Positions 3,758 through 41,549 of a DNA stretch of 64,000 bases are shown piece by piece. How positions within the stretch are numbered: the first letter of the stretch is position 1; the number at the start of each line of letters is the position of its first letter. The DNA comes from a bacterium (GTDB lineage: Bacteria > Patescibacteriota > UBA1384 > VFKW01). The notes under the pieces were generated by a model. That model saw nothing but the letters and a program-made list of their open reading frames with translations, searched no databases and had not been told where the DNA came from. The stretch covers positions 169,506 to 233,505 of the forward strand of contig JAUSIS010000006.1 in assembly GCA_030647355.1 (NCBI GenBank), read 5' to 3'. The position numbers and the translations under genes are program-made.

Positions 3758-4831
3758 ATGCTCAAGGATAAGATAGTTTATGTCGTCACCACGGGCGCAA
3801 CTAAGGCGAAAGGTGTTGGCATACTGCTCAGCATGCTAAAGTCAGAGGGTGCACAGTGCATCGTAATGCCAACCGACGCCAGCTATTCGATGCTTGATCT
3901 CGATTCAATCCGGGGCGAATGGGTCAAGTTCAATGGTAATGAATTCGGCGCCCGTCAAGACGAAATACCAGAAGAAGACCTAGTTGTTGTTGCGCCGTGC
4001 ACCTTCAATACGCTTTCCAAGATTGCGACGGGAATAGCTGATAACTATCCATTATCAGTGATCCATGCGGCGATCGGTAGCGGCAAGCCAGTGATTTTGG
4101 CCCTGGCTATGAATTACTGGTATTTCCAGCATCCTATAACTCCTGTAAACATCAACCGCGTAAACGCTTTTGGCAGGGTAAGGGTAATATGGCCTGAGTC
4201 GATCTATTCCGACGATGGTGTCCTCGAGAAAGTGACGATGGCGCCGTGGGAAAAGATTGTTGACACGATCTGCCATACCTACTGCAAGACACGATACAGC
4301 GAGACAAGAAAAGAACAAGAAACATCTGAGATTATCGATGATCACTTTCCAGAGTTCCATAAAACTGGCTCGAAGATGCAGCAAGACCATTTCACGAATG
4401 GTTCCGCTGGATTCATTGCCAAGAGAATTAAGGAAGGTGTACTTGTCACGTCTTCAGGGTCTTGTGTCGGAAATCTGTCAAGATCGGATCTCACGATTAT
4501 TCAGAACTGGTCCAATCAGGTTATAACCTGGTCAGGTGAGGCAAAGCCGTCGTCCGAGACGCCTTTGATATTGGAGATATTCGACAAATTCCCTGATGTC
4601 AAAGTAATCATACACGGACACTGTAGAAGCATCACTTACAGTCCTCTTATGAATAAGTATCACAGCAGTGAGTATCTCAAATACGGCGAATGGAAGGAGT
4701 TATACAAGATCCAGCCCGTTCTTCAGAAGTACAACGGGGGCATCATGAAATTGCATGGCGAGCTGATCCTTGCCAGGGATTTTGATGAAGCCATGGAGAG
4801 GTATCTGGATATGTATCGCCTAACCTGTTAA
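3758..4831 (+). CDS. two-domain fusion: HFCD/CoaC-like flavoprotein (N-terminal) plus class II aldolase/adducin-like domain (C-terminal)
   Basis: N-terminal APCTFNTLSKIATGIADN and ALAMNYWYF correspond to the HFCD PASANTxxKxAxGxxD and PAMNxxMW motifs. C-terminal PSSETPLILEIF...VIIHGHC corresponds to the class II aldolase PSSE...HTH pattern. GGTGG RBS sits before the ATG at 3758. Confidence 0.6.
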   Translation: MLKDKIVYVVTTGATKAKGVGILLSMLKSEGAQCIVMPTDASYSMLDLDSIRGEWVKFNGNEFGARQDEIPEEDLVVVAPCTFNTLSKIATGIADNYPLSVIHAAIGSGKPVILALAMNYWYFQHPITPVNINRVNAFGRVRVIWPESIYSDDGVLEKVTMAPWEKIVDTICHTYCKTRYSETRKEQETSEIIDDHFPEFHKTGSKMQQDHFTNGSAGFIAKRIKEGVLVTSSGSCVGNLSRSDLTIIQNWSNQVITWSGEAKPSSETPLILEIFDKFPDVKVIIHGHCRSITYSPLMNKYHSSEYLKYGEWKELYKIQPVLQKYNGGIMKLHGELILARDFDEAMERYLDMYRLTC

Positions 4832-5601: not shown

Positions 5602-5631
5602 ATAGGTTCGAACAAACTCCCCTATGCGCTA
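5602..5631 (+). other. tRNA-Glu 3'-end-like fragment (T-arm/acceptor/CCA); possible att-site remnant
   Basis: GGTTCGAACAAACTCCCCTATGCGCTACCA matches the 3' terminal 26 nt of the intact tRNA-Glu at 10974-11048, apart from a 4-nt insertion. It is in inverted orientation relative to that gene. Confidence 0.45.
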
Positions 5632-5667
5632 CCACATGGTTTTTGATTTGAACCCGCAACCAACCCG

Positions 5668-5728
5668 GTAGACTGAATGAATCTTATTTCGAACACCTTG
5701 TGGATTGGCTGAATCAGCTAATGCTTGC
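5668..5728 (+). repeat. 61-bp direct repeat, copy 1 (flanks the SWIM/Fic island)
   Basis: ggtagactgaatgaatcttatttcgaacaccttgtggattggctgaatcagctaatgcttg. About 87% identical to the copy at 7679-7739 in the same orientation. Confidence 0.6.
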
Positions 5729-5805: not shown

Positions 5806-6639
5806 ATGTTTTCATATACTAGAATTATTTTAGATAATACTGAATTATCGATCTATCAACGAGGCCTGGAATATGTCAACAAAAAGAAAGTGAAGTTAAC
5901 CTCTATCATAAATAATGGCTGCCAAGCAACTGCGAGTGGTTCACGAAATTATGAGATTACTCTAGGTTTCTCCAGGGTTGGCTCACCAAAATATTCCTGC
6001 TCCTGCCCATATTTTAGTGAACACAAAAAAGTGGTTTGTAAACATATTATTGGCACCTCGCTTGCTTGGGATAGATCGCGGAGTGTCCCTGATCCAGATG
6101 AAGAAACTTTGGAAGTACTTTGCATTCCGGAACCGATATTTTCGCACAAGGATATTAATGAAGCGTATAATAATCCGCTAACAGCTAACCTTGATGTTAT
6201 TCGAATCGCCGCTGATGAAAGCGGCTGGTCTAGGCCTCATGCACATTTACCAATAAAGCCACAAGTTTGTAATCATACAACCCTTGAGTTGACCGATATT
6301 AACAAAGGTATTTCAGAACTTCGTGCCTGGGCTAGAAAATATAACTTTGACCCCTATTTTTGCGCTGGCGAAATAATGGCCGGATTCTGTGAGCTCATAA
6401 GGTTCACTAAGTTTAAATTTGATACTTTAAATTTAGATGATAAAATTAAGGCAACAGTATTACTTGCTAATTTTCATCATGAATTAATCATGGAAAAGAT
6501 TGATGACAGCGAAGGCCTGCACGAATTTTCAGAAACTCATCTTTATGATCTAGTTAGCGAGTTAACTAACAATCAGAAGTTGAATCAGACGCAAATAAAA
6601 GCGCTTGAATTAATTAAACATAAAATTGATGATTATTAG
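5806..6639 (+). CDS. SWIM-type zinc-finger domain protein (hypothetical)
   Basis: CSCPYF...CKHI fits the SWIM CxCxnCxH signature. The rest has no other recognisable domain. Confidence 0.5.
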   Translation: MFSYTRIILDNTELSIYQRGLEYVNKKKVKLTSIINNGCQATASGSRNYEITLGFSRVGSPKYSCSCPYFSEHKKVVCKHIIGTSLAWDRSRSVPDPDEETLEVLCIPEPIFSHKDINEAYNNPLTANLDVIRIAADESGWSRPHAHLPIKPQVCNHTTLELTDINKGISELRAWARKYNFDPYFCAGEIMAGFCELIRFTKFKFDTLNLDDKIKATVLLANFHHELIMEKIDDSEGLHEFSETHLYDLVSELTNNQKLNQTQIKALELIKHKIDDY

Positions 6640-6660: not shown

Positions 6661-7548
6661 TCAGGTAATTTTATATTCTGCCCTGATTTTCCAGACGCCT
6701 CGCTCGCGAAAAGCAGGAATCGATTGCCTTAGAGCGGCATTAAAAACTGTCGGAGCTCTTAAATTATTTTTTCGTACATAATCAGATAGATTGATTATTT
6801 CCGATCCTTCGAAATATGTGATTCTTTTATTTAACGATTCGGTTAGAGCCAGAGCCATAACTTTTTCCATCAATTTTGAATTTTTATTAAACTGATAAGC
6901 CTTAAATGCTTCATAATAGTCAGCCTTTTCTTTATCTCTGATAATTATACGGGGGAAGCCAAGTTGTAAGAGTTGAAAATTGGTCAGAACTCGACCAATT
7001 CGGCCGTTGCCATCGCAAAAAGGATGAATTCTCTCAAATTCAAGATGAAATTTAGCGATTTTATCAATAAAATAAGCAATGTGATCACTGGAATAATCAA
7101 TCAAAACATTATCAATTAACTGCTCGACTTTTTCGGGTGCCGACGCAACATGGGTGCCTACTCTAACATACTCGCCGATCCTACGAAAACGTCCGGCTAT
7201 ATTATCATCAATTCCGCCCATCAGCATTTGATGAATAAGCAATATTAGTTCTTTTGAGATTTCATCAGTTTGTGCTTTATCCCTTGTATAGTCAACAACC
7301 CTAGCCAAATTCTTAGCTTCATATACTTCGCGAAGGGTAACATCTCGTGAAAGCTCTTGCTCGAGTAGGATTTTTTCTGTCTCTTTAAGAGTCAATGTTG
7401 AGTTTTCAATCGCGTTGGAGTTATAGACACTTTCCGGCACTTCGGCTTGATCAATAATCGTTAAGAGAGCGTCTTTTCCTTGTTTCAAGACATTATATCT
7501 TGTCTTCAATTCACTTAATTTTTCTTGATAAGGTTTTGATAATGACAT
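6661..7548 (-). CDS. Fic/Doc family protein (class II Fic, putative AMPylase) with N-terminal inhibitory motif
   Basis: Canonical HPFCDGNGRIGR Fic motif. N-terminal SNAIEN fits the (S/T)xxxE(G/N) autoinhibitory helix. GGGGG RBS before the ATG at 7548 (tabulated start is 7590). Confidence 0.75.
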   Translation of the reverse strand: MSLSKPYQEKLSELKTRYNVLKQGKDALLTIIDQAEVPESVYNSNAIENSTLTLKETEKILLEQELSRDVTLREVYEAKNLARVVDYTRDKAQTDEISKELILLIHQMLMGGIDDNIAGRFRRIGEYVRVGTHVASAPEKVEQLIDNVLIDYSSDHIAYFIDKIAKFHLEFERIHPFCDGNGRIGRVLTNFQLLQLGFPRIIIRDKEKADYYEAFKAYQFNKNSKLMEKVMALALTESLNKRITYFEGSEIINLSDYVRKNNLRAPTVFNAALRQSIPAFRERGVWKIRAEYKIT

Positions 7549-7678
7549 AGTTGCCCCCAATTTAATGCAATTTAATTGTATACCATTCACGTTATTTTGT
7601 CAATATAGAGTGAATATGCATGTATATTAACATATATTCACGCTATTTTACTCCGCTCAACTCATTCATAGATGATTG

Positions 7679-7739
7679 GTAGACTGAATGCATCTTATTT
7701 CAAACACCTTGCGGATTAGCTGAATCAGTTAACGGTTGT
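7679..7739 (+). repeat. 61-bp direct repeat, copy 2
   Basis: ggtagactgaatgcatcttatttcaaacaccttgcggattagctgaatcagttaacggttg. Confidence 0.6.
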
Positions 7740-10584: not shown

Positions 10585-10986
10585 ATGTGGCGGTGTCAAG
10601 TGTACGTATGGAATCGAATTGTATGTGGGAAACTCACCCAAATGGTCCACTTTGTGGCCGTTTCCCGACCCCTTCCCGGATCCGATTCCAGACTCATATA
10701 TACCAAAATAGAGGAGAAAATAAGAGCACTTCAAATCGCTAAGAATGACGATTTACTTTTGAAATATAATCTTGAGGCGATCACCAAATTTATAAAAAAC
10801 AAGCTTGGTAATCTCACTCAAACTTACATAGATTCAACTCTGGAACAGAAGAGAATCTTGTTGTGTTCGATATACCCCTCAGGATTGCATTGGGGCGAAA
10901 ATGGCTATTCGAACACCCAAATTAGCAAGTTCTACAGGAGTATATTGGGGATACAGACTGATAGCATCCCTTTTGGTAGCGCATAG
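10585..10986 (+). pseudogene. truncated tyrosine-recombinase (integrase)-like N-terminal fragment abutting tRNA-Glu
   Basis: STLEQKRILLCSIYPSGLHWGE resembles the start of the tyrosine recombinase catalytic domain (LLLLLYTGLRxxE), with H in place of the first catalytic R. It is preceded by a SAM-like core-binding stretch. The ORF runs into the tRNA and lacks the rest of the catalytic domain. Confidence 0.35.
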
Positions 10987-11048
10987 GGGAGTCGAACCCC
11001 TCTTTTCAGATTGAAAATCTGACGTCCTAACCGATAGACGAATGCGCC
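10974..11048 (-). tRNA. tRNA-Glu (anticodon UUC), CCA encoded
   Basis: Manual cloverleaf on the minus strand: acceptor GGCGCAT/ATGCGCT (G1-U72), D-arm GTCT/GGAC, anticodon stem TCAGA/TCTGA with loop TTTTCAA (UUC), T-arm AGGGG-TTCGACT-CCCCT, discriminator A + CCA. Confidence 0.8.
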
Positions 11049-11098
11049 TTTATCTCGAGCGTAGTCGAGAGGGTATCATTCTAACGAAAATATTATAT
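11049..11098 (+). repeat. MITE-like ~48-bp repeat, copy A (contains the CTCGA-GCGNAG-TCGAG hairpin core)
   Basis: tttatctcgagcgtagtcgagagggtatcattctaacgaaaatattata. About 88% identical to the copy at 12402-12455. Begins immediately at the 5' end of tRNA-Glu. Confidence 0.55.
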
Positions 11099-11233
11099 CG
11101 TAAATATGACAAATAATCAAGCTAGCTCAGGGTAATTCGCATTACCCTTCCTTTACAAAATGACTAATCGGTACTATAATTATGCAACATTCAAACGCCG
11201 CAAATTTACATCTACGAAAGGGGAAAATTATCC

Positions 11234-12286
11234 ATGCAACGACCGGATAGCAAGACTATTAGTATAGAGATGCCTTGCGATATGCACACCCACTTGCGCG
11301 AGGGAGAACTCCAGAACCGAATAGTCCCGCACTTTGCTTGGCTTGACGCCGTCGTCGCCATGCTCAACTACAAGGACCCCCTCGACCTGGATCAGATTCT
11401 CACCGAGCGTGCTCGGATCGAGGAATTGATTCACCAGGCAGGTGGCCATGCCGAGCTGCTCATCGCACCATTAATGAATGAGGGGACGAGCGCTGACGAC
11501 ATTGATGCTTTCGCAGCCAACGGCATCAAGATCGTCAAAGTGATGCTCAAGGGCGTTACAACCAATTCGCACCTCGGCGTCAATCGGATCCGAGACATGT
11601 ACCCGATCTTCGCCCGCATGGAGGAACTGGGAATGATCGCCAGTTTTCATGGCGAGCTTCCCAATGTACCACACCGGTGGGCAGAGCAAGCCTTCTTACC
11701 GACCTATGAGATCTTGGCACTCAAATTCCCGCGTCTCAAGATTGTCGCCGAGCATATCTCGACACGGGAGGGTATTGAGTTGATCAAATCTCTTCCCGAA
11801 AATGTGGTAGCCACCTTGACGGCCTCGCACATGATGATTACTGGACGACAAGTCTTCAAGTCTGAAAGCGCCGAAGAAGTGCTATTCCCTAACAGGTTCT
11901 TCAGACCGGTCGCCAAGGAACACGAAGACATGATTGCCATTCAGCAAGCCGCTATGTCCGGAAATCCCAAGTTCATCTTCGGATCCGACAGTGCTCCGCA
12001 CACGCCAGAAAAGAAGCAGCTCCCCAACCCTGCTGCCGGTGCATTCTTTCCACCAGAACTAGCAATTCCGGCAATTGCGGAGGCCTTCGTGAACCTGAAT
12101 AAACTCGATCGTCTCGATGCCTTTCTTTCCGGCAACGCCCAGCGCTTCTACGGTCTCACGCCGAGCAAGCGCCAGCTTACACTTAAGTATGGCGAGTGGA
12201 CGACGCCTGAATACATCGAGGGCATAGTCCCGCTTCTGTGTGTCTATCCGATGTACTGGAGAATTGACGATAACGGCACCGACTAA
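11234..12286 (+). CDS. pyrC: dihydroorotase-like amidohydrolase (class II DHOase-like)
   Basis: N-terminal MPCDMHTHLREGE fits the DxHxHLR metal-binding start of class II dihydroorotases. Length 350 aa. GC about 53% against a ~40% background. Confidence 0.55.
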   Translation: MQRPDSKTISIEMPCDMHTHLREGELQNRIVPHFAWLDAVVAMLNYKDPLDLDQILTERARIEELIHQAGGHAELLIAPLMNEGTSADDIDAFAANGIKIVKVMLKGVTTNSHLGVNRIRDMYPIFARMEELGMIASFHGELPNVPHRWAEQAFLPTYEILALKFPRLKIVAEHISTREGIELIKSLPENVVATLTASHMMITGRQVFKSESAEEVLFPNRFFRPVAKEHEDMIAIQQAAMSGNPKFIFGSDSAPHTPEKKQLPNPAAGAFFPPELAIPAIAEAFVNLNKLDRLDAFLSGNAQRFYGLTPSKRQLTLKYGEWTTPEYIEGIVPLLCVYPMYWRIDDNGTD

Positions 12287-12325
12287 CATCTGTTCAAAGG
12301 GCGTTTAGACAATACCCAAATACTT

Positions 12326-12356
12326 CCCAGGTCATCACACCTGGGATTTTCTTTTT
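12326..12356 (+). terminator. rho-independent terminator
   Basis: cccaggt-catcac-acctggg hairpin followed by attttcttttt. Confidence 0.5.
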
Positions 12357-12377
12357 ATAGTTGATAGTTTAGCCAAT

Positions 12378-12455
12378 GAATTTATCTCGAGCGGAGTCAA
12401 GAGCTTATCTCGAGCGAAGTCGAGAGATTATCATTCCAACGAAGATATAATAACA
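12378..12455 (+). repeat. MITE-like repeat, copy B (core unit tandemly duplicated)
   Basis: tttatctcgagcggagtcaagagc + ttatctcgagcgaagtcgagagattatcattccaacgaagatataata. Confidence 0.55.
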
Positions 12456-12542
12456 TAAAAAGCAATTATCTTCGAGTTACCCCCCTACCTTACTAATCGA
12501 AAAAGAGACCATTGTCTCTTTTTCGTAAATCCCAAAATAATT

Positions 12543-13406: not shown

Positions 13407-13507
13407 AAAACCTCCTAATATGATTACAATACTATTGTAGAGCTTTGACATAATCTGTCAATAGGTTATATCCTGAGCAATTGAATATATACATTGAATT
13501 ATATTTG

Positions 13508-13579
13508 AGGGCCCAGTGGGATTCGAACCCACGACACGAGGATTAAGAGTCCTCTGCTCTACCACTGAGCTATAGGCCC
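13508..13579 (-). tRNA. tRNA-Lys (anticodon CUU)
   Basis: Manual fold: acceptor GGGCCTA/TGGGCCC, D-arm GCTC-AGTGGTA-GAGC, anticodon stem GAGGA/TCCTC with loop CTCTTAA, T-arm GTGGG-TTCGAAT-CCCAC. CCA is not encoded. Confidence 0.8.
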
Positions 13580-13686: not shown

Positions 13687-14637
13687 TTAGGCGCTTATGA
13701 TCTCTAATGTTCGGTCTCGCAGATCTCTGCGGATGTAGTAGCAGGGCAGAAATGGGTTACGAAGAAATATTGAGCCGAAACTAACTGCACCCACCCCCAG
13801 CGTGCGTACTTTGGCTATATCCTCGTATTCCCATACACCCGCCCCAATGACCGGGATCAATCCAATCTCAACTATGTCATGAATGAACGGCCAGTTGATG
13901 TGTTGCGCCGCTTTGCCGGAAACACCGCCTCCGCCATGGTGTGCTAACGGGCTCACTTTATCAGGAAAGCAGATCGCCCAAGGAACCGTATTGATCGTAA
14001 TTGCTTCCACGATTCTATGCACAGTCATGACTATTCTCTCAAGCAGTGGCCAAGAAGCAGCCGAAAGCTTAAGGATAACCGGCTTGCTACTTTCTCGACG
14101 AATGATTTCGCACATCTCCTGTAGTCGCCCGACAGTCATCGGTACGCTATGCTGTACATTGGGGCAATAAGGGTCAATCTCGATTGCCACAATCGGCAGA
14201 TCTCTGCATCGCCTTGCCATCTGCGCCAATTTTCGAAAATCGTCAGAGAAAAAGTTAAGCACCAGAGCATACAGCTTTGGATTATAACTCTTCTCTATAT
14301 CCTCGGCAACCACCCAAAAGCCCGGGTTTGCCCATCCATGCGCATTGACTGTTCCGCCGGGTAAAAATCGCAGAGTATCTCTGGGCTTATACCATCGATA
14401 GTTTCCTAAACGCCCAGGAGAAGTAGTAGTCTTACCGAAGACCGTCATCATTGCCCGGTCGAGTGGCTTTTCCCAGTGGAGCAACTTATCAGCCAAATTT
14501 CTCCGGCTGAAATCAGGGATAGACAGATAGAGCAATATCCGCTCCCACGGCCACGCCTCGCCCCAATAGCCCAAAGCGCCAGCCGAGCACGCATACTCAA
14601 TCTCGTGTCCGTTCGACAGCCGGATCAAATCATTCAC
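13687..14637 (-). CDS. dihydroorotate dehydrogenase-like flavoprotein (class 1 DHODH TIM-barrel family)
   Basis: AIEIDPYCPNV (NxSCPN-like), HGGGGVSGKA (GGLSGxP-like) and IPVIGAGVWEYEDIAKVRTLGVGAVSFGS (C-terminal FMN-binding strand). GC about 50%. Confidence 0.5.
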   Translation of the reverse strand: MNDLIRLSNGHEIEYACSAGALGYWGEAWPWERILLYLSIPDFSRRNLADKLLHWEKPLDRAMMTVFGKTTTSPGRLGNYRWYKPRDTLRFLPGGTVNAHGWANPGFWVVAEDIEKSYNPKLYALVLNFFSDDFRKLAQMARRCRDLPIVAIEIDPYCPNVQHSVPMTVGRLQEMCEIIRRESSKPVILKLSAASWPLLERIVMTVHRIVEAITINTVPWAICFPDKVSPLAHHGGGGVSGKAAQHINWPFIHDIVEIGLIPVIGAGVWEYEDIAKVRTLGVGAVSFGSIFLRNPFLPCYYIRRDLRDRTLEIISA

Positions 14638-24718: not shown

Positions 24719-26380
24719 TTATTTCTCTAAAAACGCCTTGTTTCTCTTTGCCCGATGAAAACTTATCCCAAACCGATGCACTTCGTCGCGAATTGCCCGC
24801 AAAAGCAGCAAAGATTTTGACTGCAGATTTAGCGCAATAGGTAATTCAACCTTGGGTATAAAAATCAGCTCATCCTTTTTTACCAAACCGATAATTGGTA
24901 TTTTCAGCCCAAGCTTCTTTAATACTTCACAAGCCGCATTCAATTGTCCTTTCCCGCCATCAATTAAAATCAAACTTGGCTTTGGCAATTCCTTATTATT
25001 TAACCTGCGCGAAACAATTTCTCCCATCATCGCTACATCATTTTGCCCGACGACTGTCTTAATAATAAATTTGCGATAACGATCCTTACAGGGGACGCCT
25101 TTTACAAATGTAACCATAGCGCCAACTGCCTGATTTTCTCCCAAATTGGAGATATCGAACGCCTCAATTATTTGGGGAGATTTTGGAAGCTCTAAATCCC
25201 TCTGCAATGATTCCAATATATTATTCAATTGTTTACTCTTAGTTAAAACTTGATTTGTCGAATCAATTGCATTCTCCAGAGCCAAATCAACAAGCGCCAT
25301 TTGATCCCCTGGTTTTGGTTTGGAAATCTGTGTTTTGATACCTCTTTCTAAAAAAGCGCTCACTAATATTGTTAAATCCTCTACTTCGGTATTAACCAAA
25401 ATCTCCTTTGGAATATCAAAATTATTGACATAATATTGGCTTAAAACCGCATGTAAAATATCTTTCTCGTCGAATTTGTCAACTGCGTCAAATTGTAAAT
25501 TATTGCAATGTAATAATTTCCCTTGCCTAACTTTCATTACTGTACATGTAGCGATATCGTACATTTTATAAACAGCAAATATATCACGATTGGTTAAGTG
25601 CGCTGAAACAATATGTTGGCTCTCTATCAAGCGATTAAGGTTTGCAATCTGATCTCTGGTTTTTGCGGCTCCTTCGAAGTCCATATTATTGGCTTGCTTT
25701 TCCATGTCCAATTGGAGTTCTTTCAATAATTCCTTATAGTTGCCTTTAAGAAATTTAATGGTCGAATTAATGCGGTTGTCATATTCTTCCTTGGTAACCT
25801 TTCCTGCATAAGGTGCAGCACACAAGCCAAGCTGATAATTCAAACATGCCCTCTGCCCCGTCTTATAGGTATGAGTCACAATTCCAAAATTTTTTCGAAT
25901 GAACTGTATGGTTTGTCGCAGCGAATTTGCCGACAAATAAGGGCCAAAATATTTTGCTTTATCATTCAATACATTCCGTGTGATAGTTAAGCGTGGAAAT
26001 TCCTCATTTGTAAGTTTCAAGTAGGGGAATGTTTTATCGTCTTTTAATCGAATATTATATGTTGGATGATATTTTTTAATTAAGTTATTTTCTAATAGTA
26101 GCGCCTCAAACTCGTTGCTAACGATAATTGTTTCAATATCGTCAATTTGCCTGATCATCAGTTCAATCCATGGCGAAGGCAGATCCCTTCTTGCGCTGAG
26201 CGAAGTCGAAGTGTGAAAATATGAGGTAACCCGGTTTTTTAAATTCTTTGCTTTCCCCACATACAAAACTCTACGATTTTCATCTCGCATAATATAGACG
26301 CCTGGTTTTTTTGGAATGTTTCTACATATATCAAGCATGATTCGTATTATACTATAAAAATGACCTTTTGAATATTCCAT
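24719..26380 (-). CDS. uvrC: excinuclease ABC subunit C
   Basis: GIY-YIG domain (PGVYIMRDENRRVLYVGKAKNLKNRVTSYF). UvrBC-interaction, RNaseH-like and HhH regions present. Confidence 0.85.
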   Translation of the reverse strand: MEYSKGHFYSIIRIMLDICRNIPKKPGVYIMRDENRRVLYVGKAKNLKNRVTSYFHTSTSLSARRDLPSPWIELMIRQIDDIETIIVSNEFEALLLENNLIKKYHPTYNIRLKDDKTFPYLKLTNEEFPRLTITRNVLNDKAKYFGPYLSANSLRQTIQFIRKNFGIVTHTYKTGQRACLNYQLGLCAAPYAGKVTKEEYDNRINSTIKFLKGNYKELLKELQLDMEKQANNMDFEGAAKTRDQIANLNRLIESQHIVSAHLTNRDIFAVYKMYDIATCTVMKVRQGKLLHCNNLQFDAVDKFDEKDILHAVLSQYYVNNFDIPKEILVNTEVEDLTILVSAFLERGIKTQISKPKPGDQMALVDLALENAIDSTNQVLTKSKQLNNILESLQRDLELPKSPQIIEAFDISNLGENQAVGAMVTFVKGVPCKDRYRKFIIKTVVGQNDVAMMGEIVSRRLNNKELPKPSLILIDGGKGQLNAACEVLKKLGLKIPIIGLVKKDELIFIPKVELPIALNLQSKSLLLLRAIRDEVHRFGISFHRAKRNKAFLEK

Positions 26381-27217: not shown

Positions 27218-27949
27218 TTGGAGAAAATCAAAAGATCGTTCGTTGATGAGCAGATTCGCCTTGCGTTGGAAGCCCTGGGGCGATCACAGGTTCTTCCCAA
27301 ATGGGCACGATGGACACCCAAGATGTGGCAGGAGGCAGTCCGCCGCGGAATGGATCCCTCTGAAATCATCAACTGCGGGCTCGGTTGGGATTTTACCACA
27401 TTCGGTGTATCCGAGAGGATGTTCCCCAAAACGGGTCTGGTTGCTTTCACCTTGAGCAATGGCAACCCGGACAAGGAATATCCACAGGAGTATTGCCAGA
27501 AACTCCTCTGGCTTCAGGAGGGACAATCAATCCCTTGGCACCACCACAAAGACAAGCGCGAGGACATCTACCACATTGCCGGCGGAAGACTGCGGATGCA
27601 GGTCGCAAGACCAAAGAGGATCAGGGAGAAGTTCGAAGCCGATAAAACGGAGAACCTAATCCTAAGTCTAGAGAACGCTCCAAGGGAGTTCGTACCGTGC
27701 GGAGAGTTCTGGGTTGGCAAAGAATGCCCCAGACGAATTCGGCTCGAGCCGGGCATCGGTCACTTGATGACAGGCGGATGTGGCGGCACGCTACTTGGCG
27801 AAGTATCCAGCGTCAACAAGGAGGTTGGTGTAAGGGTTCAGGACAATACGTTCTGGGCTGGCAATCCCCGCTACATTAACATAGTTGCCGATGTCCCGCC
27901 CCGCTATGTGCTTTGCAACGAGTACGCCGAACTACTGAAAGTCGCCTAA
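27218..27949 (+). CDS. cupin-fold sugar isomerase, D-lyxose ketol-isomerase-like
   Basis: IPWHHHKDKREDIYHIAGGRL resembles the D-lyxose isomerase metal site (HxHxxxxxE...GG). AGGAGGG RBS and TTG start. GC about 55%. Confidence 0.45.
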   Translation: MEKIKRSFVDEQIRLALEALGRSQVLPKWARWTPKMWQEAVRRGMDPSEIINCGLGWDFTTFGVSERMFPKTGLVAFTLSNGNPDKEYPQEYCQKLLWLQEGQSIPWHHHKDKREDIYHIAGGRLRMQVARPKRIREKFEADKTENLILSLENAPREFVPCGEFWVGKECPRRIRLEPGIGHLMTGGCGGTLLGEVSSVNKEVGVRVQDNTFWAGNPRYINIVADVPPRYVLCNEYAELLKVA

Positions 27950-32368: not shown

Positions 32369-33394
32369 TTATACGACCTTTACCCCCTTGTGACCTTGAA
32401 CGATCTTGCCAATCACCCAAGCCCTCTCGCCGAAAGAGTTTAGATGCTGAAGAACATCGCTTACATCTTCCCTGCGGACGACAATGATCATTCCAACTTT
32501 CATGTTGAACGTCTTCAGCATCTCGGCGCGCGAATTCCCGGATGCTTGCTGAATCCAATCAAAGACCGCATCCCGCTCCCACGATGAGTAGTCAACGATA
32601 GCCCTATGCCACTTAGGCAGTACACGTACGAGGTTATCCGGAATGCCCCCGCCGGTGATATGCGCCGCTCCACGGATAAGGTGAAGATTGAAAAGTGGAT
32701 AAAGCGCATCGAAATAGCACCGGTGGCCGGTAAGAAGCGCCTTTCCAACCGTTGACTCGGGATTCCAGGGCGCAGGATCGTCCACAGTCAGTCCGACTTT
32801 TTCCAGCACCTTGCGTACGAGCGACCAGCCGTTGGTGTGCAAGCCATTAGACGCCAGACCGACCAGTACGTCACTGACAAGAATCGCTTTGCCGGTGACC
32901 AGCTTGCTTTTGTCAACTATGCCCGTAATACATCCTGCCAGATCAAAAATACCGGGCATGTAGAAACCTGGCATCTCTGCAGTCTCTCCGCCAGTCATGC
33001 TAACATTCAGTGCTCGACAGGCATTAGTCGCGCCAATGACTGCTTGAGCCATCTGCTGCTTGTTGAGCACTCCGGCCGCAAAATAGTCCAGGAAAGTCAA
33101 TGGTCTCGCCCCGTGAACCAGGATGCCATTGACCGAGTGGTTCACGAGAGCTTCCCCGGCGACACCACAATTGTTGGCGTCAATGGCGACCTTAATTATC
33201 GCTCCCACCCTGTCAATGCTCTGGATAAGAACATTCTGGTCGTCAGGCCGAAGGTACATTCCACCAAAACCACCAATCCCCCCAAGAACACGCGATCCGT
33301 GCGTACTTCGTACGGCATCTTTGATAAGACCTACCGCTTCCTTGCCAGCATCAATATTGACGCCGGCGTCCTTGTAAGTAATCCTGTCAGCCAA
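32369..33394 (-). CDS. purM: phosphoribosylformylglycinamidine cyclo-ligase (AIR synthetase)
   Basis: DAGVNIDAG N-terminal motif and the PurM N/C domain pattern. Length 341 aa. Confidence 0.85.
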   Translation of the reverse strand: MADRITYKDAGVNIDAGKEAVGLIKDAVRSTHGSRVLGGIGGFGGMYLRPDDQNVLIQSIDRVGAIIKVAIDANNCGVAGEALVNHSVNGILVHGARPLTFLDYFAAGVLNKQQMAQAVIGATNACRALNVSMTGGETAEMPGFYMPGIFDLAGCITGIVDKSKLVTGKAILVSDVLVGLASNGLHTNGWSLVRKVLEKVGLTVDDPAPWNPESTVGKALLTGHRCYFDALYPLFNLHLIRGAAHITGGGIPDNLVRVLPKWHRAIVDYSSWERDAVFDWIQQASGNSRAEMLKTFNMKVGMIIVVRREDVSDVLQHLNSFGERAWVIGKIVQGHKGVKVV

Positions 33395-38997: not shown

Positions 38998-41013
38998 TTA
39001 TCGCTCCGACTTAATTATATCCCGTTGAATTTTCCGAAGCTCAATGAGTTCATCGCGCAGTGCTGCCGCCCACTCAAACTGCAACTCGCGAGCCGCTTCT
39101 TTCATCTCTTTCTCTTTGCGCTTGATTAAATCGTCAATATTGCCGCCGCGTGCCATCTCTTTTTCAACCGCATCCAAACCAGTTTCTTCCCCTTCGATTC
39201 TAGCGACAATTGAATTAATTTCTTTTTTAATACTTGCAGGAGTAATACCATGAATTTTATTATGCTCGAGCTGTATCTCTCGACGTCGGTTTGTCTCGCT
39301 AATTGCTTTTTTAAGCGAGTCTGTCATTACATCGGCATATAAAATAACTTTACCCTGCACATTCCTCGCCGCCCGCCCTATTGTCTGAATAAGCGATCTC
39401 TCTGATCGCAAAAACCCTTCTTTATCGGCATCCATTATTGCAACCAACGATACTTCAGGCAAATCTAAACCCTCTCGGAGTAGGTTAACCCCGACAATAA
39501 CATCGTAAGTCCCTTGCCTCAAATCTCGTAAAATCTCAATTCGCTCTAAAGTATCAACATCGCTATGCAAATAGCGTACTTTAACTCCATTTTGATTCAA
39601 ATATTCACTTAAATCTTCGGCCATTTTCTTTGTTAAGGTAGTCACTAGCACTCTTCCGTGTTTAGCGATTCGTTTTTCGATTTCTCCAACCAAATCCTCA
39701 ACCTGGTTTTCAATCGGCTTAACCTCCAATTCTGGGTCAATTAAGCCTGTTGGACGGATAATCTGCTCGACAATCTGCTGGCTATTTTGCAGTTCATATA
39801 CTGCCGGCGTAGCAGAAGTAAAGATAACGCGATTCATATATTTACTAAACTCGCCCCATCTTAATGGCCGATTATCACGGGCGGAAGGCAATCTGAACCC
39901 ATAATCAACCAAAGTGTTCTTTCTCGACTTATCGCCTTCGTACATCGCTCCGATTTGTGGTACAGTTACATGCGACTCGTCAATAATCATTAAAAAATCC
40001 CTGCCTCGAGCGGAGTCGAGAGGATCCATAGCAAAATAATCGAGCAAAGTATTAGGCGCCGATCCGGCTGGTCTTCCCTCTAAATGTCTCGAATAATTTT
40101 CGATCCCGTTGCAATAACCAACTTCTCGCATCATTACCAGATCGTATTTTGTACGTCTAAATAACCGCTCAGCTTCGGGTATTTTCCCCGTCGAGCGCAA
40201 ATGTCCCACTTGCTCATTCATCTCTTTCTCAATCTCCCTGAAAGCAACCTCTGCTTTTTCCGGATCCATAACATAGTGCCGTGCTGGAAAAATCGTTAAA
40301 TATTTTACCTGTTCACGTTCTCTGCCGGTTGTAAAATCGCGGACGCAAATTCGGTCAATTTCGTCCCCGGAAAATTCAATTCTGAAAATAATTTCCTGAT
40401 TTACAGGCACTAATTCAACTATATCACCTTTCGCCCGAAAATTTCCCCTCGCCAGCGAAACTTCATTTCGAATATATTGCATCTCGACTAATCGTTTGAT
40501 TAAATTTTCTCTTCCCAGCTTTTCGCCTTTATTTATCATCAAAACAACATTTTTATACGCTTCGGGCGAACCTACTCCATAAATACACGAAACAGAAGCA
40601 ACGATAATCACATCTTTCCTAGTTAAAAGTGCTTGCGTCGAAGCATGTCGTAATCGGTCAATTTCGTCATTAATCTGTGCTTCTTTTTCTATATACGTAT
40701 CCGTTGTCGGTAAATATGCTTCCGGTTGATAGTAGTCATAATAAGAAACGAAATACTCAACTGCATTTTCCGGAAAAAAGTCTCGAAATTCCTGACAAAG
40801 CTGTGCCGCTAATGTTTTGTTATGAGCAATAACCAAAGTCGGCTTTTGTATGCGATCAATCACATTAGCAATCGTGAATGTCTTACCGGAACCTGTCACG
40901 CCCAAAAGAGTCTGCATTCTAAACTCTTTCTGCAGACCTTCGGTTAATTTATCAATTGCCTTTGGCTGATCACCCGCCGGCTTAAATTTACTTTTGATCT
41001 TAAACTTTTCCAT
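38998..41013 (-). CDS. uvrB: excinuclease ABC subunit B
   Basis: Helicase motifs ([16 protein letters not shown]), beta-hairpin and C-terminal UVR domain. Length 671 aa. Confidence 0.9.
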
Positions 41014-41020
41014 TTTTCAC

Positions 41021-41112
41021 TCTTTTTTAGTTGGAGAATAATGCGATGAGGCGAGTTAAACGTAGTGCATCCGCCTCCGCCGGTTGGCGGAGGAACGCTC
41101 ACCGAATTGCGT
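41021..41112. other. nested inverted-repeat element immediately upstream of uvrB (11-bp outer stem, perfect 8-bp GC inner hairpin)
   Basis: Outer ttggagaataa / ttattctccaa. Inner cctccgcc-ggtt-ggcggagg at 41064-41083. Confidence 0.4.
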
Positions 41113-41549
41113 TATTCTCCAACTAGCTTATTATAGACGAACAAATACCGAAAATCCAGCTGTTGAGCCAAGCTCATGCTTGACGAGTTTTATTTTTCTG
41201 GAAGCGAAAGATATTCCTACGCTTCAAAAGAAGTCGTGCAGGGGTATGGGATTGTAAGGGACATAGGGGGCGACTTCTGCTCGTCATTTACATAGATCGG
41301 CGGAGCCGAATCTGCTTACATCAGCCCGCCCTGATTCGCCGACAGAGTCGGCGACGGATAACAACGAGCCCCCTTAACCCTTACATACAAAACCTGTGGA
41401 TAACCCGATTTCAGGTGTATAGAATTTAGGAATTTTACAGGAAGTGAACCTGTTAATCGGTTGGAACCTAACCAACCTATTGACAAGGTTAGACATATCT
41501 TTAACAATACAAATAGAAAGAAAAAAGGTTTGGAAAGGAGGTGATTAAA

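Follow-up and report, generated by a model that had tools for sequence, protein, structure and literature searches.

Probable REP-type hairpin repeats inside uvrB and uvrC and beside tRNA-Glu in a Patescibacteria-like genome, and a duplicated promoter-plus-repeat segment around a pyrC-like gene

Repetitive extragenic palindromes (REPs) tagged by the tetranucleotide CGTC are small bacterial stem-loop repeats reported from five phyla, mostly as head-to-head dimers and with no linked transposase (Di Nocera, De Gregorio and Rocco, 2013, PMC3733652). As described in the text of that study, they consist of a 4-nt head (CGTC, TGTC, or CCTC), a stem of 8–9 bp starting with A-T and T-A pairs, a loop of 4–5 nt, and a short unpaired 3' tail with the consensus CCA (PMC3733652). 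According to the same text, in-frame inserts of these REPs recur in the genes of UvrA, UvrB, UvrD, PolI, and RecBCD, the Rickettsia palindromic elements (RPEs) RPE-4 and RPE-6 are counted among them, the uvrB of R. conorii carries two units, and REPs situated between convergent genes often act as 3' stabilizers (PMC3733652). Here, we describe a family of ~24-nt hairpin repeats found in a 64-kb window (the whole stretch of DNA analyzed, positions 169,506–233,505 of contig JAUSIS010000006.1) of a metagenome-assembled genome (MAG) resembling those of the candidate phyla radiation (CPR, Patescibacteria), whose nearest named relatives by UvrB and transketolase are Berkelbacteria, Saccharimonadales, Daviesbacteria, and "Patescibacteria group". 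In the reading that we consider probable, the units are REP-type hairpins that were inserted at three or more sites of this window, and a duplicated segment composed of a promoter and one unit flanks an acquired pyrC-like gene.

An 18-nt core, CTCGAGCGNAGTCGAGAG, starts at positions 11054, 12386 (one mismatch), 12409, and 40005 of the window, always on the + strand. These four exact or near-exact matches compare with 0.06 expected from shuffled sequences, which bears out the initial annotation in its view of a dispersed repeat beyond chance. A covariance model (R1), trained on 110 units from other genomes only and run over the window with filters off, recovered the following sites A, B2, uvrB, and uvrC at E-values from 1.6e-9 to 1.5e-5.

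11048–11077, + strand: unit A, between the tRNA-Glu promoter and the tRNA-Glu 5' end; exact core; R1 30.3 bits, E = 2e-7
12381–12403, + strand: unit B1, a decayed tandem copy with a period of 23 nt; stem broken by G>A (TCAAG)
12403–12432, + strand: unit B2, downstream of pyrC, the best-preserved copy (AT-CTC...GAG-AT); R1 36.5 bits, E = 1.6e-9
26189–26218, + strand: uvrC-internal unit, stem CGCT/AGTG; R1 24.7 bits, E = 1.5e-5
39999–40028, + strand: uvrB-internal unit; R1 26.8 bits, E = 2.9e-6

Apart from these four units and a partial match to B1 (12387–12402, E ~1), no R1 match with E < 0.5 was found in the window, and the nearest relatives, searched at five loci with a total of 58.6 kb, yielded no unit (best E = 0.13). 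The hairpin-forming core had been described as tandemly duplicated downstream of pyrC; the tandem is real, but its first copy has lost the stem. Moreover, the repeat is not confined to the three loci originally recognized, given the further diverged copy in uvrC, the stem of which (CGCT/AGTG rather than TCTC/GAGA) shows that it is no copy of the other window units. All five units lie on the + strand and tRNA-Glu, uvrB, and uvrC on the minus strand, an agreement that is not significant since only about three independent events are involved.

The assignment of these units to a widespread hairpin family rests on a scan of species-representative genomes with the core, which yielded at least 120 loci, 912 kb of locus sequence being analyzed. 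The loci belong to Flavobacteriia, Bacteroidales, Clostridia, sphingomonads, Streptomyces, Thermomicrobiales, Cyanobacteria, Verrucomicrobia, and several CPR lineages, and in all, the GAGCGNAGTCGA-centered hairpin spans at least eight phylum-level groups and is also present on viral contigs (15 contigs carrying the core with the same head types). The flanks of the core are non-random: among the listed loci most copies read (T/C)GTCA(T/C)-core-(A/G)TC, many members end in ATC, and the sphingomonad copies read GTTCG(Y)-core-(R)CG. The family can thus be described as a ~24-nt hairpin with a 4-nt head of the TGTC/CGTC type, a covarying stem of ~5 bp, and a center whose apical 12 nt (GAGCGNAGTCGA) are invariant across the aligned units. 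Heads in other genomes are mostly TGTC or CGTC, with GTTC in sphingomonads and CCCC in Streptomyces, and the variant with a TTAT head, seen in the window, was found on 115 metagenome contigs. Many copies have an inverted partner 28–50 nt away, an arrangement common in the flavobacterial and sphingomonad loci.

Covariation of the stem was observed directly. The center GAGCGNAG(N)CGA is present at 227 sites in the 912 kb, 94 of them with stems other than CTC/GAG, and exactly five consecutive flank pairs were counted at 36 of these 94, compared with 6.6 expected from shuffled flanks. In an ungapped alignment of 110 distinct units, 90.5% of the cells pair (72.6% in shuffles) and the covariation score is 0.499, against 0.178 in shuffles, a value reached by none of 500 shuffles; sliding the partner column as a control lowered the score to 0.07–0.14. 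The five outer pairs all vary on both sides, one position being CG in 43 units, GC in 38, and UA in 16. When the unit is read as 9 + 4 + 9 positions, the covariation is limited to the outer 5 bp, and the inner part contains tandem G·A/A·G pairs and a C·T mismatch. The loop position N is free and the neighboring G and A are invariant, which fits a C-GNA-G triloop closed above tandem G·A pairs; judged from its sequence, the GAGCGNAGTCGA module can form tandem G·A pairs, two G-C pairs, and a GNA triloop. C-GNA-G loops with tandem G·A pairs are known as a motif of stable DNA hairpins rather than of RNA ones.

Searches of Rfam returned no family for the locus (E up to 10), for the whole window, or for 16 unit-rich loci, and a PyrR-type element, suggested by the string AGTCGAGAGG, was discarded, having no Rfam match. 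Literal sequence strings retrieved nothing from literature text, or primer noise only. In other genomes, single units stand in frame in the genes of isoleucyl-tRNA synthetase, hydroxymethylpyrimidine kinase (ThiD), and chorismate synthase. In low-GC loci, 14 of 238 units (~6%) lie deep inside long open reading frames (ORFs), in both orientations and in all three frames, which argues for an element acting at the DNA level that survives only where it is harmless. No excision-repair gene was found among the ~200 unit-covering ORFs of other genomes, and a tRNA occurs within 8 kb of the unit in only two of 60 loci and adjacent to it in none, for which reason an element specific to tRNA leaders was dropped as a candidate.

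Some further details of these loci were observed. Two flavobacterial-type contigs carry an in-frame unit at the same site of a purL-like gene (L016, ~4240–4290, − strand; L203, 3738–3759, − strand), with the peptides DGKL-SSRAKSRD-NSRPKAAILREKGS and DGKL-LSRAQSRG-ADKPKAAILREKGS, respectively, and differing details of head and stem, which suggests an old insertion that has been inherited and is drifting. In a contig of an uncultured Prevotella sp. (L017), an 836-aa ORF includes at least three in-frame units (...SSRAQSRDL...), some of them clustered near the C-terminus, one unit lying at 1671 (− strand); judging by its sequence, this glycoside-hydrolase-like protein may be a beta-galactosidase. 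On metagenome contigs, of which L170, L174, L188, and L222 are examples, TTAT-head units are nested between complementary flanks (...TTCGACGGAGT-[unit]-ACTCAGGG...) and seem to have entered the loop of a second hairpin repeat, one of related type.

The two intragenic units of the window are lineage-specific in-frame insertions in the following excision-repair genes.

38998–41013, − strand: uvrB, NCBIfam equivalog match of 1024.7 bits (cutoff 743)
24719–26380, − strand: uvrC, NCBIfam equivalog match of 530.4 bits (cutoff 285)

In uvrB, a 24-nt block (CCTGCCTCGAGCGGAGTCGAGAGG, 40000–40023) and one extra codon make a net gain of 27 nt or nine amino acids; the uvrB copy is more than a similar stretch in conserved coding sequence and coincides with this in-frame insertion. 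The inserted region, residues A328–R338, stands where relatives have PD. The nine residues are missing from 12 relatives, including one with 82% identity, which read YF-P(D/K) at this position, as well as from a solved UvrB structure; in DNA and codon alignments, three relatives share TAT TTT CCG GAT GAT TTT at the insertion spot. In an AlphaFold model of the protein (mean predicted local distance difference test score, pLDDT, 71.8), residues 329–337 are coil with pLDDT below 50, and the insert is placed between a helix and the strand leading into helicase motif II (DESH). In uvrC, the insertion comprises 24 nt (26189–26212) and adds eight residues, T57–R64 (TSTSLSAR): the protein reads SYF-H-TSTSLSAR-RDLPSPW, compared with SYF-Q-KDLPSPW in its closest representative (65% identical), and the eight residues are also missing from ten further homologs and from solved GIY-YIG N-terminal domains. 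The mRNA carries both units as the reverse complement, and both are translated. The uvrA, uvrB, and uvrC genes together make up ~10% of the window, and the location of two out of two intragenic copies in them corresponds to a p of about 0.01 under the hypothesis already in the literature; given that no enrichment was detected in the sample of other genomes, the pairing may be due to chance or be specific to this lineage.

As side observations on these genes, the UvrC of this genome (553 aa) and its closest representative both stop right after the endonuclease domain and have no counterpart of the ~55-aa C-terminal extension of the longer homologs in the alignment, which we believe to be the helix-hairpin-helix region. 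An inverted repeat (41028–41055 / 41098–41125), with 28-nt arms that are 82% complementary and a 42-nt spacer, lies a short way upstream of the start codon of uvrB (41013).

The larger repeat around the pyrC-like gene, given as a ~48-bp unit in the initial annotation, is a composite of a hairpin unit and a promoter segment, and the composite as a whole is duplicated. A 55-nt direct repeat (11050–11104 and 12405–12459, 85% identical) brackets the pyrC-like ORF, in agreement with the original description, and the 23-nt tandem copy lies at 12381–12403. The relevant features are listed below.

10974–11048, − strand: tRNA-Glu (UUC), predicted by ARAGORN and Rfam; 97% identical to the tRNA-Glu of the relative's locus L124
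11078–11104, − strand: non-hairpin part of copy A, the -10/leader of the tRNA-Glu promoter
12433–12459, − strand: duplicate of the tRNA-Glu -10/leader segment, completing the second 55-nt copy together with B2; no -35 upstream
13507–13579, − strand: tRNA-Lys (CUU), 2.46 kb from tRNA-Glu here and adjacent to it in L124

Since tRNA-Glu is on the minus strand, copy A does not follow this gene, as had been stated, and instead lies upstream, abutting its 5' end. A promoter scan placed a site TTGATT-17-TATAAT (11120–11092, − strand, 10/12) in front of tRNA-Glu, with a 43-nt leader that holds unit A; the -10 element (TATAAT, 11097–11092) is inside the repeat and the -35 element (TTGATT, 11120–11115) is outside. 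Twenty-seven of the repeat's 55 nt are the -10/leader segment of this promoter-like site. In L124, tRNA-Lys and tRNA-Glu are 46 nt apart and the transketolase is 66% identical to that of the window; the spacer contains TTGATT-17-TAGAAT followed by 10 nt before tRNA-Glu, and neither a unit nor pyrC is present. As this locus has an equivalent tRNA-Glu promoter, the right-hand part of the repeat (...TATAATATTTTCGTTAGAATGATA in reverse complement; ATTCNAACGAA within the 48–55-bp unit) is identified as the promoter's -10/leader, and the dispersed element is the left ~24-nt hairpin part alone. Copy B carries the promoter segment and the unit together, which indicates a segmental duplication and no independent insertion. 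No terminal inverted repeats were seen, the only hairpin being internal and the right part having no inverted match to the left end, and no target-site duplication was visible at A or B.

The gene between the two copies forms a self-contained cassette.

11152–12346, + strand: pyrC cassette, comprising its own promoter-like site, the ORF, and an intrinsic terminator

The promoter-like site is TTTACA-17-TATAAT (11152–11180), a Shine-Dalgarno sequence is present, and the intrinsic terminator at 12325–12346 is a good one. The ORF (11234–12286) has a GC content of 53.5% and a GC content at third codon positions (GC3) of 63.8%, the highest GC3 among the 46 ORFs of the window (z = 2.6). Its product matches Pfam Amidohydro_2 and, with 224.6 bits, which is under the cutoff of 292.95, NCBIfam pyrC_dimer (TIGR00856); solved dihydroorotases of the homodimeric type match it from end to end (E = 8e-42), and in the alignment the metal-binding motifs (HxH, HGE, EHI, and DSAPH) can be seen. 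The best homologs are only 37–39% identical and taxonomically scattered. Homologs of pyrC, of a pyrD-like gene, of a DUF5666 gene, and of the gene for a 905-aa protein are lacking in the syntenic regions of L124 and L125, in which the adjoining block of hydrogenase and pentose-phosphate genes is conserved; in locus P0248, synteny is limited to the transketolase genes. The pyrC cassette and the DUF5666 gene separate tRNA-Lys from tRNA-Glu, which are neighbors in L124. The pyrC gene is thus lineage-specific and, in line with the GC excess originally noted (~53% against ~40%), compositionally foreign, and its high GC3 and its absence from syntenic relatives support a recent acquisition.

Several observations were made in the surroundings of this cassette. 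A pyrD-like ORF (13687–14637, − strand) adjoins tRNA-Lys, with a weak Pfam DHO_dh match, no NCBIfam match, and a GC content of 50.5%; two pyrimidine-pathway-like genes are unusual in a CPR genome. A partial copy of the tRNA-Glu 3' end is located at 5603–5636 (+ strand), with 19 exact nucleotides (ACTCCCCTATGCGCTACCA) preceded by the T-loop-like GGTTCGAA. Its orientation is opposite to that of the intact gene, the pair brackets 5.4 kb of lineage-specific genes, and the partial copy may be a relic of an integration or an inversion. An ORF beside tRNA-Glu (10585–10986) was considered as a recombinase remnant and discarded, as it has no Pfam or PHROG match.

Of the known repeats, the CGTC-tagged REPs, as characterized in the text of PMC3733652, resemble the present units most: the two appear similar in a short stem-loop with a 4-nt head, a G-A-rich loop of 4–5 nt, a short tail, and a distribution over several phyla as singles and dimers, and they share in-frame intragenic copies (uvrB and uvrC here) and the lack of a linked transposase, none being found among the window ORFs scanned. 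They differ in having a 5-bp covarying stem and an invariant 12-nt non-canonical module instead of a clean 8–9-bp palindrome, their intragenic peptides differ from those listed there for CGTC-1 to CGTC-4, the heads of the window copies are degenerate, with no head-to-head dimers, and CPR genomes are outside the coverage given in that text (PMC3733652). An A-T start of the stem is seen in B2 (AT...AT) and not in copy A or the uvrB copy, and among the window copies only that of uvrB, which ends in ...GAGAGGATCCA, has a CCA tail. GTAG-tagged REPs and their paired forms (REPINs) are similar in size class, in a hairpin with an unpaired 5' tetranucleotide, in dispersal, and in occasional in-frame insertion (PMC6006769), but no GTAG is found at the hairpin foot in the window copies or in the family consensus. 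In contrast to REP/REPIN systems with a REP-associated tyrosine transposase (RAYT, TnpA-REP), no RAYT gene and no repeat-flanked Y1/HUH gene (REPtron) is present in the 64-kb window, and the REPs of RAYT subclass 2.6 in Bacteroidetes, examined as a candidate, have a different sequence (GCTAGCGCGAGCG...). As with the RPEs, palindromic repeats stand in frame in functional genes of a reduced genome, although the taxon and the sequence are different and the units here are ~24 nt long, with two intragenic copies in 64 kb. The classic RPE-1 is much longer, about 100–150 bp. A dif/Xer-like or integron attC-like site, which the 6-6-6 layout of arms and spacer could suggest, was considered and dropped without a directed search, as nothing supports it.

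We propose that the 18-nt core would be the central part of a small REP-type hairpin repeat that inserted independently into the tRNA-Glu leader, the uvrB loop just before motif II (DESH), and a variable GIY-YIG loop of uvrC. The intragenic copies may have persisted because their length is a multiple of three and the surface loops are tolerant. It is possible, if rather doubtful at present, that copies of the repeat spread as DNA, in the form of a single-stranded hairpin on which a hairpin-specific nuclease or transposase, HUH/Y1-like or other, acts in trans. The 55-nt flanking duplication would have arisen when the cassette was acquired, through recombination at the segment of promoter plus unit, and not through transposition of a MITE (a miniature transposable element with inverted repeats). 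A more far-reaching proposal is that the GAGCGNAGTCGA hairpin is a distinct, uncatalogued, pan-bacterial single-stranded DNA element whose invariant apical module docks a widespread mobilizing or processing enzyme and which has a real link to excision repair, as was speculated for REPs in 2013; we regard this as unlikely.

A number of points weigh against the proposed explanation. Measured against TGTC/CGTC, the window copies have degenerate heads (TTTA, CTTA, CCTG, and TCTT). Under standard DNA parameters, the folding of single window units is weak (-2.6 to -4.2 kcal/mol, z between -1.5 and 0); these values are not significant, and the structural case therefore rests on covariation. The window contains no inverted (head-to-head) pair of units and only one head-to-tail tandem, and the copy number of four to five refers to the 64-kb window. 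The ends of the insertions can be placed to within ~3 nt, and a target duplication is not demonstrable; at the uvrB site a tandem GAT GAT exists already, so a target duplication cannot be deduced from it. Neither a transposase nor a HUH gene came up among those window ORFs that were scanned with Pfam, so that mobility and mechanism are inferred. The adjacency of tRNA-Lys and tRNA-Glu was seen in one relative, L124, and a recombination origin of the 55-nt duplication is favored by inference only. The units, which were compared with the CGTC REPs through the text of that study, are probably a new subfamily, and a new lineage, of a known kind (PMC3733652).

Other explanations can be weighed against the same observations. 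The initial annotation named a mobile hairpin element of ~48 bp as one of two options, the other being a shared protein or nuclease recognition sequence, and in its fuller form the first reading has a ~48–55-bp MITE, or a pair of MITEs acting in the manner of a composite transposon, move pyrC and leave a fragment in uvrB. MITEs of the Correia and Nezha types are likewise small, non-coding, repeated, and hairpin-capable, direct repeats do bracket a compositionally foreign gene here, and the core is dispersed. A hairpin-type repeat inserted at several places, uvrB included, is what remains of the proposal, but the mobile ~48-bp unit does not: the repeat has no terminal inverted repeats bounding 50–500 bp, no target-site duplication, and no transposase-derived ends, it exists in two copies only, 27 of its 55 nt are the tRNA-Glu -10/leader with an equivalent in L124, the uvrB and uvrC copies hold the ~24-nt hairpin only, and no transposase was found among the scanned window ORFs. 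We consider a MITE origin highly improbable. The locus also resembles tRNA-linked islets in having a foreign GC-rich gene beside tRNAs, direct repeats around it, and a neighborhood that varies among relatives; in contrast to these, the repeat corresponds to the 5' promoter/leader side of the tRNA and not to its 3' end, no integrase is present, and the islet is a single 1.3-kb gene. That the inserts involve no mobile element and are filler DNA templated by a local repeat, through gene conversion, break repair, or template switching, would account for their shortness (24–27 nt) and for the identity of the uvrB core with the intergenic copies over 18 nt. Yet the uvrC stem differs by compensatory changes and is no copy of A, B, or the uvrB unit, and the same architecture is repeated at hundreds of places in unrelated genomes, which leaves templated filler with very little probability. 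Misassembly or chimeric reads placing one short sequence at several loci deserve a thought in any MAG, but can be practically set aside here, as independent Logan assemblies of the same sample (SRR13727527) reproduce both the pyrC locus with its flanking repeats and the uvrB insertion, the frames are kept and both host proteins score as full-length equivalogs, and the copies differ from each other.

The remaining alternatives attribute a function to the repeat itself. The invariance of the apical 12 nt is of the kind expected from a protein recognition module, and the core includes the XhoI-type palindrome CTCGAG, so the core could be an operator, a protein-binding site, or a nuclease or restriction-type site shared by pyrC, tRNA-Glu, uvrB, and uvrC as a regulon. 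Two of the copies, however, are deep in coding sequence, lineage-specific, and away from promoters, and other genomes carry units in unrelated genes and in intergenic regions, in all frames and both orientations, with the absence of excision-repair genes and of any tRNA association described above; a shared site of this kind is therefore very unlikely. An RNA element, be it a processing hairpin of the tRNA leader, a terminator or stabilizer, or a small structured RNA, would be in keeping with the position of copy A in the predicted tRNA-Glu leader, with the G-U pairs in the stems, and with the location of B1 and B2 between convergent genes, that of the 3'-stabilizing REPs (PMC3733652). Action as RNA is nevertheless improbable in our judgment, considering that no Rfam family matches, that the units have no preferred orientation relative to the host genes, that the loop with its tandem G·A pairs would be a motif of DNA hairpins more than of RNA ones, and that the uvrB and uvrC copies are in reverse complement in the mRNA and translated.

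The REP-type reading extends such hairpins and the in-frame colonization of essential genes to CPR/Patescibacteria, and, with uvrB and uvrC in a single 64-kb stretch, enlarges by two the number of excision-repair genes with such inserts, a recurrence that has no explanation so far. CPR genomes are tiny and generally regarded as poor in selfish DNA. We know of no transposase for this hairpin family, and the covariance model, with its invariant 12-nt center and covarying stem, provides a usable signature for finding the enzyme that moves it. Instead of a MITE-borne pyrC, a duplicated promoter-plus-REP segment is now seen to flank a pyrimidine-pathway gene that was probably acquired horizontally, in a lineage from which de novo synthesis of nucleotides is not expected. 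If the distinct single-stranded DNA element were true, the copies in uvrB and uvrC would reflect a functional link to nucleotide excision repair and not the tolerance of loops.

Further GC3 outliers in the window are a gene of the D-lyxose isomerase family (27218–27949, 62.7%) and an AIR-synthase-related gene (32369–33394, 56.7%), which suggests that metabolic genes were acquired independently several times. Another repeat family, with a length of ~60 nt and starting with GTAGACTGAATG, is present at 471–511 (− strand), 5667–5727 (+ strand), and 7678–7738 (+ strand). Two direct copies of it, 89% identical, lie on either side of 2 kb of low-GC DNA with genes for a SWIM-domain protein (5806–6639) and a Fic protein (6661–7590), another direct-repeat-flanked cassette in the same variable region as pyrC.

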